This document shows, in pieces, positions 3,612 through 27,682 of a stretch of DNA of 27,682 bases. The translations under genes were made by a program, and so were the position numbers. The stretch's first letter is position 1. Every line of letters begins with the position of its first letter. The notes under the pieces are model-generated. The model searched no databases. It was given only the letters and a program-made list of their open reading frames with translations, and was not told the DNA's origin. This DNA is from Candidatus Hydrogenedentota bacterium (GTDB taxonomy: Bacteria > Hydrogenedentota > Hydrogenedentia > Hydrogenedentales > SLHB01), in NCBI GenBank assembly GCA_029974275.1, contig JARKSN010000259.1, positions 1-27,682 of the forward strand, in the 5' to 3' direction.

Positions 3612-3673
3612 GCCGCACGCGACCCGCCCGGCTTTCTGTTCCCGCAGCCAGTCAGCCTCAATTCGGGCGACGC

Positions 3674-3691
3674 CAGGCAATCGCATTAAAA
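3674..3691 (+). mobile_element. Solitary degenerate terminal inverted repeat of the ISAs1-like MITE family
   Basis: CAGGCAATCGCATTAAAA compared with element ends CAGGGCAATCGCATTA (27434) and the reverse complement of the copy-1 right end, CAGGGCCATTGCATTAAAA. No partner end or TSD found. Confidence 0.55.
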
Positions 3692-3704
3692 CCTACATAG
3701 CCAT

Positions 3705-4247
3705 GTGGATTTCCCTCGGGTAGTCGTTGTCCCATTCAGCTTGGATGCGTTTTGCTTTGACGCCAAGGCGAAGCGCCTCGCCGATAAGGGCGATGCGTTT
3801 ACGGCGCGGGCCTTTGGCATCTGCATGCTGGAAACAAATCCGAGCAAACTCTCGACATTCGGCGCGCATCTGAAGCGCAAGTATGACGGTGTGTACACGC
3901 ACCAGAACGTCGCGCAGATCGCGGTGGCCAACCGCTTTGACCCGGGCACGATGCCTGCCTGGGGTCATGCACAGGCGCAAGGCCTAATGCTGGCCTATCC
4001 GGACGGACCCAAGTGGACCCGCAAGGTCAACCTGTTCCAGGATGCGCGCTTCACCACGCGCGACGCAACCTACGTGAACCAGGCGGCCCTGCCGCATCAG
4101 CGCGTGCATGTGGATTTCGATCCGCAGCGATCCGCAGCGCGGGCCACGGGCGGTGAACTCAGCTATTCGTATCAGTACACGAACCATGAATTCCCGTACG
4201 CGTACTGGATGCTGCGTATCTCCGGCGACATTCTTGCCCCGCAATAG
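3705..4247 (+). CDS. Hypothetical protein, possibly a 5'-truncated remnant
   Basis: 180-codon ORF with protein-like composition, followed by a strong terminator. GTG start has no RBS, and the upstream in-frame TAA lies inside the IS-like end. Confidence 0.55.
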   Translation: MDFPRVVVVPFSLDAFCFDAKAKRLADKGDAFTARAFGICMLETNPSKLSTFGAHLKRKYDGVYTHQNVAQIAVANRFDPGTMPAWGHAQAQGLMLAYPDGPKWTRKVNLFQDARFTTRDATYVNQAALPHQRVHVDFDPQRSAARATGGELSYSYQYTNHEFPYAYWMLRISGDILAPQ

Positions 4248-9485: not shown

Positions 9486-10802
9486 CTACCCGACGCAGAC
9501 CATGTTTTTGCCGCCGGATTTGGCTTGATACAACGCGGCGTCGGCCGCCCGGACAAAGGCGTCGCCGCTCATGTTTTCCGTCATCTGCGCCACGCCCATG
9601 CTCATGCTGGTTTCGTAACGAGCCGCGCTGCTGAACTGTGCGCGGATGCGCTCGGCCACGTGCCGCCCCGCCTCCGCGTCCGCGCCCGTCAACAGAATGG
9701 CAAACTCATCGCCTCCATACCGGAATCCGTCATCTTTCTCGCTCCGGATGTTATTCAAGATGAGTTCGCCCACCAGATGCAACACCTCGTCGCCGGCCGG
9801 ATGCCCGTACGTGTCGTTGCAATGCTTGAAATTGTCGATGTCGATAAAAACCAACGTGACCGGTTGATGGGTCTTGCGCGCCCGCGCCATCGCGCCTTCC
9901 AGACGCGTACAGAACGCCCGGTGATTGAACAAACCCGTCTTGCCGTCTTTTTGGGCGATATCCGCCAGACGCTGCTGCATTTCCCGCTGAACCGTGACAT
10001 CCTTGAACGTCAGCAGCAGCACCGGCTCGGGCTCCACGTGAATATACGTGACGCTGATGTCGAACCATGCATCCCCTGCCGTTTCCGAAACGACGCGGAT
10101 ATCGGCCAACGTTCCTCGGCCTGTCTGGGCGATCATGCCCAGTCCTTCCTCGAGACGCGTCCGCTCGGAAGAGCCGAAAACGTCAAAAAGACAAGCCCCC
10201 ACCACCTGGGAAGACGACACGCTGAAACACTCGCAAAACGCCTGGTTCACGTCGCGGATCACATGCCCCTGGGGCGCCACCAACAGCATGCCGCTCATGC
10301 TGAGTTCGAACAGGCTGCGGTATTTCTTCTCCGCCTGATTCTGAGCCGCCCGCATCGCCTCGATCTCTTCCCGATCCCGTTGAATCTGAAGCCGCTCGCG
10401 GCGAAGTTCCTCGGTCAGCGCCCGCTCCTTGAAAACGCGCACCAACTTGGCGTGCATTTCGCCCAGCTGACAAGGCTTCGAAATAAAATCGGACGCGCCC
10501 GCCTGGATGATCTCTACGTAGGCAAAGGCCTCGGCATACGCCGTCATGACAATGATCGACACATCCGGCCATCGCGAGTTCACCTCGGAAATGAGTTCCA
10601 ACCCGCAACGCCCCGGCATGACCATGTCGGAAACGAAAACATCAAACGAGCCCGAGGAAAGCGCCGCCAGCGCAGACGCGCCATCGTTCGCCCGGGTCAC
10701 CTCGCACCCGAGCCTCTCCTCCACCAGTTGCGCCAGAGCATCGACCGCCGCAGGCTCATCATCCGCTATCAAAACGCGCCGACCGCCGTATAATTCTGTC
10801 AT
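9486..10802 (-). CDS. Response-regulator diguanylate cyclase (REC, coiled coil, PAS, GGDEF)
   Basis: REC motifs LIADDE, SDMVMPG, MTAY, KP; PAS YRSLFE...DVNQAF...KDVT; GGDEF motifs DIDNFKHCNDTYGHPAGD, RYGGDEF, ADAALYQAKSGGKN. ATG at 10802 follows GAGGAGGA. Confidence 0.95.
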   Translation of the reverse strand: MTELYGGRRVLIADDEPAAVDALAQLVEERLGCEVTRANDGASALAALSSGSFDVFVSDMVMPGRCGLELISEVNSRWPDVSIIVMTAYAEAFAYVEIIQAGASDFISKPCQLGEMHAKLVRVFKERALTEELRRERLQIQRDREEIEAMRAAQNQAEKKYRSLFELSMSGMLLVAPQGHVIRDVNQAFCECFSVSSSQVVGACLFDVFGSSERTRLEEGLGMIAQTGRGTLADIRVVSETAGDAWFDISVTYIHVEPEPVLLLTFKDVTVQREMQQRLADIAQKDGKTGLFNHRAFCTRLEGAMARARKTHQPVTLVFIDIDNFKHCNDTYGHPAGDEVLHLVGELILNNIRSEKDDGFRYGGDEFAILLTGADAEAGRHVAERIRAQFSSAARYETSMSMGVAQMTENMSGDAFVRAADAALYQAKSGGKNMVCVG

Positions 10803-10829
10803 CAAATTCCAGTCCTCCTCCGATCCCTG

Positions 10830-10858
10830 AGTGTACTCAACCCGCCCGATTAAATCAA
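10830..10858 (-). promoter_or_regulatory. sigma70 promoter of the diguanylate cyclase gene
   Basis: TTGATT (10853-10858)-17 bp-TACACT (10830-10835). Confidence 0.65.
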
Positions 10859-10871
10859 TCGCCCTTTCTCG

Positions 10872-11134
10872 CAGGGCAATCGGCATTACATGGCCGAGGG
10901 AAATGGTGCGTGGGAATGGCCATCGTTAATGTCTTTGTAGCGCCCGGTCTCTGTGCCGGGCGGTTTTACGGCAAGCGATGAGACGAATCCACACCCCCCG
11001 GATCATTGCGCCCAGACCCGCCCGGCACGGAGACCGGGCGCTACAAAGACGAAAATCGTGCGCCAACGGTGAAATCGGAACGTATATGGAGCCAAAAAGC
11101 CCTAATGACTCAGAATTTTAATGCAATGGCCCTG
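10872..11134. mobile_element. 263-bp MITE with ISAs1-like ends, copy 1 (complete)
   Basis: Left end CAGGGCAATCGGCATTA, right end TAATGCAATGGCCCTG (imperfect inverted repeats). Exact 10-bp direct repeat CCCTTTCTCG at 10862-10871 and 11135-11144. Near-identical copy at 27434. No transposase ORF. Confidence 0.9.
10931..11050. repeat. REP doublet (REPIN-like) inside MITE copy 1
   Basis: 33-bp inverted arms at 10931-10963 and 11018-11050 (1 mismatch) with a 54-bp spacer. Each arm is GTAG plus hairpin CGCCCGG-N8-CCGGGCG. Confidence 0.88.
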
Positions 11135-11307
11135 CCCTTTCTCGCCTGCCGCGACAAAGGCAGAGCCCGCAGACACGGGATACCGAAAAAACCGGCGTGT
11201 AGAAAAGCGGAAGGCAGCGGCGCGATCGATCGCCTATGCCCCGCCGCCGTTCTCGTCGGCACGGCGGAATCCACAATCAGCACGCGATGGCCCCGGCGCG
11301 ACGCGCA

Positions 11308-27423: not shown

Positions 27424-27433
27424 TTCCCCGGCG

Positions 27434-27682
27434 CAGGGCAATCGCATTACATGGCCGAGGGAAATGGTGCGTGGGAATGGCCATCGTTAATGTCTTTGTA
27501 GCGCCCGGTCTCCGTGCCGGGCGGTTTTACGGCACGCGACGAGACGAATCCACACAGCCCCGGATCGTTGCGCCCAGACCCGCCCGGCACGGAGACCGGG
27601 CGCTACAAAAACGAAAATCGTGCGCCAAACGGTAAAATCGTGACGTATATGGAGCCAAAAAGTCCTAATGACTCAGAATTGT
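27434..27682. mobile_element. MITE copy 2 (right end cut by the window edge)
   Basis: Colinear with 10872-11119, with roughly 15 differences by eye. Identity begins at the CAGGGC end. Perfect 30-bp inverted REP arms at 27495-27524 and 27580-27609. Confidence 0.9.

Follow-up and report, generated by a model that had tools for sequence, protein, structure and literature searches.

We analysed a 27,682-bp stretch of DNA (the window) from a Candidatus Hydrogenedentota bacterium. The window is contig C329 of genome G000 (4.38 Mb, 342 contigs, 60.6% GC), and the public sequencing runs that share most of it are wastewater, sludge and digester metagenomes. A 263-bp element lies downstream of galK (ca. 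170 bp away) and 70 bp upstream of a response-regulator/GGDEF gene with a likely start at 10802 on the minus strand (Table 1). A previous sequence-only reading of this DNA had described a non-coding unit with imperfect inverted repeats of about 16 bp, an exact 10-bp duplication on either side and two inverted GTAG hairpins with 33-bp arms, and each of these features was recovered. The element contains no gene model except for an upstream, in-frame ATG located in its left end. The terminal inverted repeats (TIRs) match at 14 of 16 positions, setting aside one extra G in the left end, and with this one-base insertion the window copy may no longer be mobile. The two arms (10931-10963 and 11018-11050) are 33 nt long and 97% complementary, with GTAG-headed 26-nt units beginning at 10937 (plus strand) and 11044 (minus strand). 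Older copies have a spacer of 109-120 bp, of which the 56-bp spacer between these arms is a version with an internal deletion.

Element boundaries are marked independently by loose contig ends which, in contigs from four public runs, cluster at 11134 and near 10883. The element folds with a z of -5.8, equalled by none of 200 shuffles. It had been considered that the unit might prove to be a known structured RNA; an Rfam search of the element returned three weak matches and no family at gathering score. Scanning for promoters and terminators at this copy revealed no promoter- or terminator-like site. A second copy, previously reported at 27434, is 94.7% identical to the first over 247 nt and is truncated by the contig end; the missing right half was located on contig C283, joined by its own exact 10-bp duplication.

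Two further observations concern the window. At 10802-10886, the open frame of the GGDEF gene reaches into the element, whose left end provides an in-frame ATG 28 codons ahead of the likely start. Separately, positions 3673-3763 hold a decayed ISAs1 right-end remnant that is 78% identical to the active insertion sequence (IS) end over 88 nt and has lost one base in its terminal repeat.

Table 1. Features of the element and of its second copy, in positions of the window.
Feature	Position	Strand	Basis or remark
Left target duplication copy, 10 bp, CCCTTTCTCG	10862..10871	.	
Entire 263-bp element, an ISAs1-type MITE with a REPIN inside	10872..11134	.	
Left terminal inverted repeat	10872..10888	+	One inserted base, absent from the left ends of other copies
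Left REP: GTAG foot, 7-bp stem, 8-nt loop	10937..10962	+	
REPIN spacer, 56 bp	10963..11018	.	
Right REP, inverted relative to the left REP	11019..11044	-	
Right terminal inverted repeat	11119..11134	-	
Right target duplication copy, 10 bp, CCCTTTCTCG	11135..11144	.	
Left 10-bp target duplication of the second copy	27424..27433	.	Partner flanks the right half on contig C283
Second element copy	27434..27682	.	Cut by the contig end
Left REP unit of the second copy	27498-27523	+	
Right REP unit of the second copy	27581-27606	-	

Copies of the element and a resident ISAs1-like IS

About 30 copies of the element, intact or decayed, are present in G000, where a search with end profiles located 33 left and 29 right ends on contigs. 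The flanking repeat had been taken for a target duplication, and the other copies bear this out. An exact 10-nt partner flank beside a right end was found for 12 of 19 left ends, and none of the 19 had such a partner at 8, 9, 11 or 12 nt. The left ends tested were those of REP-bearing copies, either two-ended or broken by a contig end; 14 more, decayed or solo, were excluded from this count, their best partner matching at 7/10 positions or fewer. For seven of the 19 an exact partner is missing. Two of the 12 matches link different loci, with C125 (31215-31467) paired with C145 (22746) and C314 (20299), which may result from recombination between copies or from misassembly.

The ends form two clades, a young one differing from the window copy by 4-16% and an old one differing by 39-46%. 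According to a simple self-trained gene model nearly all MITE ends are intergenic, and most copies are found 50-300 bp from a gene end, often the 5' end. In strain X3 the element occupies the same site as in the window. The sequence-only reading held that a REPIN was captured by a DDE-mobilised MITE and now spreads as its cargo. The cargo part is supported, as detailed below; as to capture, no pre-capture MITE was found in G000 and no joint skipping the element, that is, no empty target site, was present in contigs of four of the 21 listed public runs. The REPIN may have inserted into an existing MITE, or the MITE ends may have arisen on either side of the REPIN. Two REP-less copies (C135:25241-25357 and C156:11149-11327) were considered as ancestors and rejected, as both retain REP or spacer remnants and are thus read as deletions. 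When the element ends of G000 were sought in 40 relative genomes, the REP alone matched, in seven of the 40.

A separate family of 65-bp elements, which have AGAGCAT-type inverted ends and a flank that is conserved on the upstream side, is represented in G000 by ca. 13 copies (for example at C18:1563, C104:24078 and C158:76304), one of which is fused to the MITE at C156:3656-3921. This family is free of cargo and represents a single short control.

An IS with ends matching those of the MITE had been anticipated, and an 11-copy ISAs1-like IS with such ends resides in the same genome. Its 11 left and 11 right ends are 100% identical and all located at contig breaks; 10 of 11 pair via an exact 10-bp duplication. 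Leaving the extra G aside, MITE and IS ends show one to two differences in their first 16 positions, and the right TIR of the window element resembles the left IS end out to ca. 25 nt. Profiles NF033564 and PF13808 gave no match in G000 because the middle of the IS was lost in assembly, and for the remaining 39-residue C-terminal piece alone no NCBIfam family scored. The best matches of this piece are ISAs1 transposase loci of related genomes (56-62% identity), several of them full-length and above the NF033564 cut-off. The MITE shares its TIR type and 10-bp duplication with the resident IS and with four complete ISAs1 elements of relatives, which have CAGGGC-type ends and exact 10-bp duplications. 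Judged by these sequence features, the MITE is very probably moved by an ISAs1 transposase. One clue offered earlier for this family had to be dropped: the end reading (F)NAxAL is not diagnostic, since the helper transposase stops before the end and FNAIAL is read in another frame.

Targeting of REPs by the IS was considered and rejected, with just 1 of 22 IS ends lying within 500 bp of a dispersed repeat. For 15 of the 22 IS ends, the nearest DNA they face includes a gene start within ca. 400 bp, and one end is inside a predicted gene, a bias towards gene starts that could reflect target preference or selection.

The REPIN core and its probable passage with the MITE

A RAYT gene flanked by the same REP, which the earlier reading had suggested looking for, was found on contig C268. 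The 168-residue protein scores 100.9 bits against NF047646 (cut-off 80), carries HLH (HUH) and YxxxNP motifs, the latter being a Class 2 RAYT motif (PMC6006769), and has E. coli TnpA-REP (4ER8) as its best PDB match. Among RAYTs, Groups 2 and 3 are those linked to REPINs. Two inverted doublets of the MITE's REP flank the gene, and the left REP of the window element is identical to the consensus of these flanking REPs. The spacers are related as well: the window spacer aligns to the RAYT-flanking spacers with z of 5-7 and those of most young copies with z of 5-9 (0/200 shuffles as good in each case), with weaker values for old copies and C125. In the spacer tree the RAYT-flanking doublets sit on a long branch and are unreliably placed, so that we claim no donor. 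REPs are defined by a GTAG tetranucleotide 5' of a hairpin (PMC8266576), a definition the MITE cargo fits; a CT dinucleotide directly precedes GTAG in most arms, and the window doublet is inverted, spaced and hairpin-forming, as in a REPIN. By these sequence characteristics we consider the MITE core to be a true REPIN. One ISAs1 IS copy is inserted ca. 530 bp downstream of the RAYT gene (C268:123297). A second RAYT paralogue on C195 (L004:1306-1932; NF047646, 95 bits), 45% identical to the first, is flanked by a variant REP cluster with different loops.

The REP pattern has 100 matches in G000 and none in a shuffled genome. Free REPINs were also among the things the earlier reading had proposed to search for, and free REPs and doublets do exist, with 43 of the 100 units located outside MITE ends and six doublets free. 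Four relatives encode homologues of the C268 RAYT with related REPs alongside, and the pattern also matches 16 other genomes among 135, indicating that the REP family exists independently of the MITE. Inside MITE ends are 57 of the 100 units, a count in which some units appear twice through contig overlaps, or 28 of 64 away from contig ends (44-57%). Seventeen of the 23 doublets are MITE-borne, and a doublet is held by 5 of 1181 other intergenic segments of the genome. With the REPIN apparently copied along with the MITE, about half of the REPs of this family in G000 seem to have spread as passengers.

Spacer and end distances of 14 copies are correlated with a Mantel rho of 0.81 (0 of 5000 permutations), a value which the test overstates because the copies are kin. 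Young copies have one internal spacer deletion in common, and their short spacers are 91-95% identical. Spacer and ends have thus diverged together, which argues that the unit moves as a whole.

The REP arms are also the points at which cores have been rearranged. The core is in forward orientation in 11 of 17 reconstructed copies and reversed in six, with both states in both end clades; the short spacer is reversed in C151, C314 and two metagenome contigs. Arms of 26-33 nt are far below the contig overlaps of ca. 140 nt, which argues against flips introduced by assembly. An arm is duplicated in some copies. Two other spacer types are attached, at the arm, to a total of five MITE ends, bringing the number of spacer types on the same ends to at least three. 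One alternative type is shared with a tandem array and with a free doublet (C193:47505). The array, at C193:10211-11270 (L029), comprises five units of 241-243 bp, each consisting of a REP and a CTCTGCG-rich hairpin repeat, and is fused through the REP arm to a MITE left end. Elsewhere, at C222:85400-85900 (L030), partial REP arms are repeated in a long tandem series, with a period of 26 bp, after an old MITE copy. Of 33 full-length arms, 31 agree with the consensus at every position, whereas the mean difference between ends is 27%. Among 25 ends with at least two TIR mismatches, 11 are accompanied by a perfect REP, three by a damaged one and 11 by none that could be scored (one of these at a contig end). 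The GTAG foot and the loop are conserved exactly, beyond what pairing alone would need. Selection, conversion or RAYT-linked repair could each account for perfect arms on decaying ends.

Recurrence in other genomes

The sequence-only reading correctly recognized the composite nature of the element but treated it too narrowly, as other genera and phyla have the same kind of arrangement. We carried out a pattern search across 135 genomes of the phylum. G019, from another genus, contains a 450-470-bp element with ISAs1 ends, 10-bp duplications and different subterminal DNA. Its cargo consists of two doublets, the outer one belonging to the same REP family as in G000 and the nested one being of a second type, and its core flips too. 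Young copies with duplications are present, and nearly all matches to the REP in this genome are MITE copies. Neither REP was found within ca. 1.5 kb on either side of the three Y1 genes of G019, an assembly of 80 contigs from which a REP-flanked Y1 gene may thus be missing. Subterminal DNA of the G000 and G019 elements shows no similarity (equalled by 100 and 92 of 100 shuffles) in a test that is weak, as it barely links the two subfamilies of G000 itself (4/100 shuffles).

G067 has a MITE of its own, in an empty 220-bp and a filled 283-bp form, with a cargo that occurs free in five genomes of that genus; the empty form fits either insertion or clean deletion. In genus g4, related MITE ends carry different cargo. 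MITEs of ISAs1 type with good duplications and no cargo were found in G072 (142-143 bp) and G011 (141 bp). A strong inner stem (score of at least 10) is present in 11 of 15 further elements picked by their ends, which come from 12 genomes and seven genera (5/7 when counted by genus), compared with 17% of 200 intergenic windows in a background drawn from G000 alone. By eye, the cargo of G065 resembles the NTS/SRM motif of PMC11893778.

More elaborate nesting was also observed. At L114:1323-2217 in G067, an intact-looking IS200-like tnpA gene is located inside an ISAs1 MITE bearing a REP doublet, giving three nested layers, and ISAs1 MITEs of 460-990 bp with nested second and third palindrome families are found at L119, L120 and L128 (G079) and L156 (G123). 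In a Caldilineaceae genome (G139, L349), one broken full-length ISAs1 copy is accompanied by short C-terminal remnants, at least 12 in number, which suggest a MITE that retains the transposase tail.

A scan of GTDB genomes requiring a GTAG foot yielded 30 loci, a selected set that implies no rate; 11 have a GTAG-headed REP-like hairpin and 13 of the 30 a duplication matching at 9-10 of 10 positions. In Desulforhabdus sp. TSK the REP of the MITE cargo is identical to the REPs around a RAYT scoring above the cut-off, and in a Phototrophicaceae (Chloroflexota) genome the cargo is identical to the REPs around a RAYT-like gene below the cut-off. The Azoarcus and Accumulibacter cases have poor duplications, and a cognate RAYT was identified for neither. 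The search for one covered the two RAYT matches of Azoarcus, and the Accumulibacter and Caldilineaceae genomes gave no RAYT match at E 1e-10. Scanning viral contigs (at least 120 loci) revealed, among the matches listed, no complete element with a duplication. In a metagenome scan, 4 of 13 loci are G000-type elements and the others apparently chance matches.

Possible modes of spread and known relatives

We propose, with a probability of roughly 0.8, that the REPIN spreads as cargo of an ISAs1-type MITE in a two-tier element. The outer tier would be a non-autonomous ISAs1-family MITE whose ends are recognized by the resident ISAs1 DDE transposase. This enzyme would carry the whole 250-340-bp unit to intergenic DNA without sequence preference and leave a 10-bp duplication. 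The inner tier would be a REPIN of the family flanking the G000 RAYT gene, which probably joined the lineage once, long ago, and would have been copied with the MITE ever since. The REP arms would act as recombination joints for inversion of the core, duplication of an arm, deletion, or exchange for the spacer of another REPIN. It is from the sequence patterns described above that we infer which enzyme performs each step.

A different history, in which the MITE spread empty and the RAYT later and repeatedly inserted REPINs at a preferred site in each copy, would make the REPIN a tenant rather than cargo. Cores in either orientation, several spacer types on the same ends and perfect arms on 11 of 25 decayed ends are what such insertion would produce, as are the empty and filled forms in G067 and the different cargo on related ends in genus g4. 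It does not readily explain why spacer distance follows end distance or why young copies carry one and the same deleted 56-bp spacer; moreover, the REP-less copies of G000 resemble deletions, and just six doublets are free. We therefore regard repeated insertion as improbable. That the RAYT moves the whole unit, with the ISAs1-like ends and duplications being relics of an old insertion, is hardly credible, despite an intact RAYT gene and arms that are far better conserved than the ends. The 10-bp duplications are each of their own sequence, begin exactly at the TIR boundary and have the length seen for the IS. HUH enzymes are not known to leave such a target duplication. Young copies in G019 have duplications, yet no REP-flanked gene is among its three Y1 genes. 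In addition, TnpA-REP is described as an enzyme that cleaves single-stranded DNA at C|T in the vicinity of the REP (PMC8266576).

It is also conceivable, if rather unlikely, that the hairpin core has a function in the MITE, such as end pairing, transcription termination or a lower cost to the host, which any pair of palindromes could serve, the REP identity being incidental. The unrelated palindrome pairs and frequent strong stems in ISAs1-ended MITEs of relatives and the location of most G000 copies close to genes point in this direction. Cargo-free ISAs1 MITEs with good duplications (G072 and G011), the lack of a terminator- or promoter-like site at the window copy and the exact conservation of foot and loop argue against it. 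A functional core would be compatible with spread as cargo and would alter only the reason for which the cargo is retained. As a tentative generalization of the cargo model, which we hold to be somewhat doubtful in this broad form, ISAs1-type MITEs may represent a general and repeatedly evolved vehicle for REPINs and further enzyme-linked palindrome pairs across bacterial phyla, with a DDE enzyme dispersing them, an HUH enzyme flipping and swapping their cores, and REP families outliving their RAYT. If the latter holds, as G019 suggests, REP abundance need not mirror RAYT activity.

The element is an apparently new combination of two known kinds, an ISAs1-type MITE and a REPIN. Our literature search covered listings and passages of mostly open-access papers, so that an earlier description may exist; it found no description of a REPIN-carrying MITE and, among the papers listed, none devoted to an ISAs1 MITE. 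Published work, in the sections available, sets REPINs apart from MITEs and describes them as dispersed by RAYTs at very low rates (bioRxiv 2021.07.10.451892, PMC5581495, PMC3116915, PMC3337134), calling the evidence for RAYT-driven REP movement indirect (PMC5581495) and the mechanism of REP spread still to be elucidated (PMC8266576). The G000 element would provide a second and directly testable route of REP dispersal, through an ordinary DDE transposase and marked by duplications. Where a single mechanism is assumed, estimates of the REPIN replication rate would be biased by such a route, which would also explain orphan REP families and blur the boundary drawn in print between REPINs and MITEs. 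For ISAs1 elements, it would add a large and apparently little-described class of MITEs.

Like RUP, Correia/NEMIS, ERIC and Nezha, the element is short, non-coding, intergenic and multicopy, with terminal inverted repeats shared with an IS and a target duplication (PMC3184786, PMC3733652). As far as these MITEs are covered in the sections available, it differs in that its partner is an ISAs1 element and its core a complete element of another system. With REPIN/RAYT systems it has in common the GTAG hairpins, the inverted spaced doublet and the association with a flanked Y1 HUH RAYT gene, together with strong arm conservation and tandem arrays (PMC3116915, PMC3337134, PMC5581495, bioRxiv 2021.07.10.451892, PMC8266576). 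Unlike REPINs as portrayed in these excerpts, most G000 doublets reside inside a carrier that appears to be DDE-mobilised and has ends and a duplication of its own.

BrickBuilt/MITEPgRS of Porphyromonas gingivalis is similar in being a MITE with two different ends that always contains a hitchhiking internal repeat; its ends are of the IS5 family and its cargo is a tandem minisatellite without an enzyme of its own (PMC4596501, part of the text). REP dimers regularly found within a longer palindromic repeat are described for GTAG-15 of Anabaena variabilis and CGTC-1 of Halothiobacillus neapolitanus (PMC3733652), for which Di Nocera et al. did not find an empty form of the outer repeat, according to the part of the article available. 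By analogy, these are possibly unrecognized cases of the same arrangement, although that part of the article describes them without an IS partner, target duplication or mobility of the carrier. Physical nesting of IS-type elements and REPs is likewise seen for IS1397, IS621 and IS1594 (PMC3184786) and for ISPpu9 (PMC12288879), where, in the passages available, the nesting is reversed and the REP is the insertion target.
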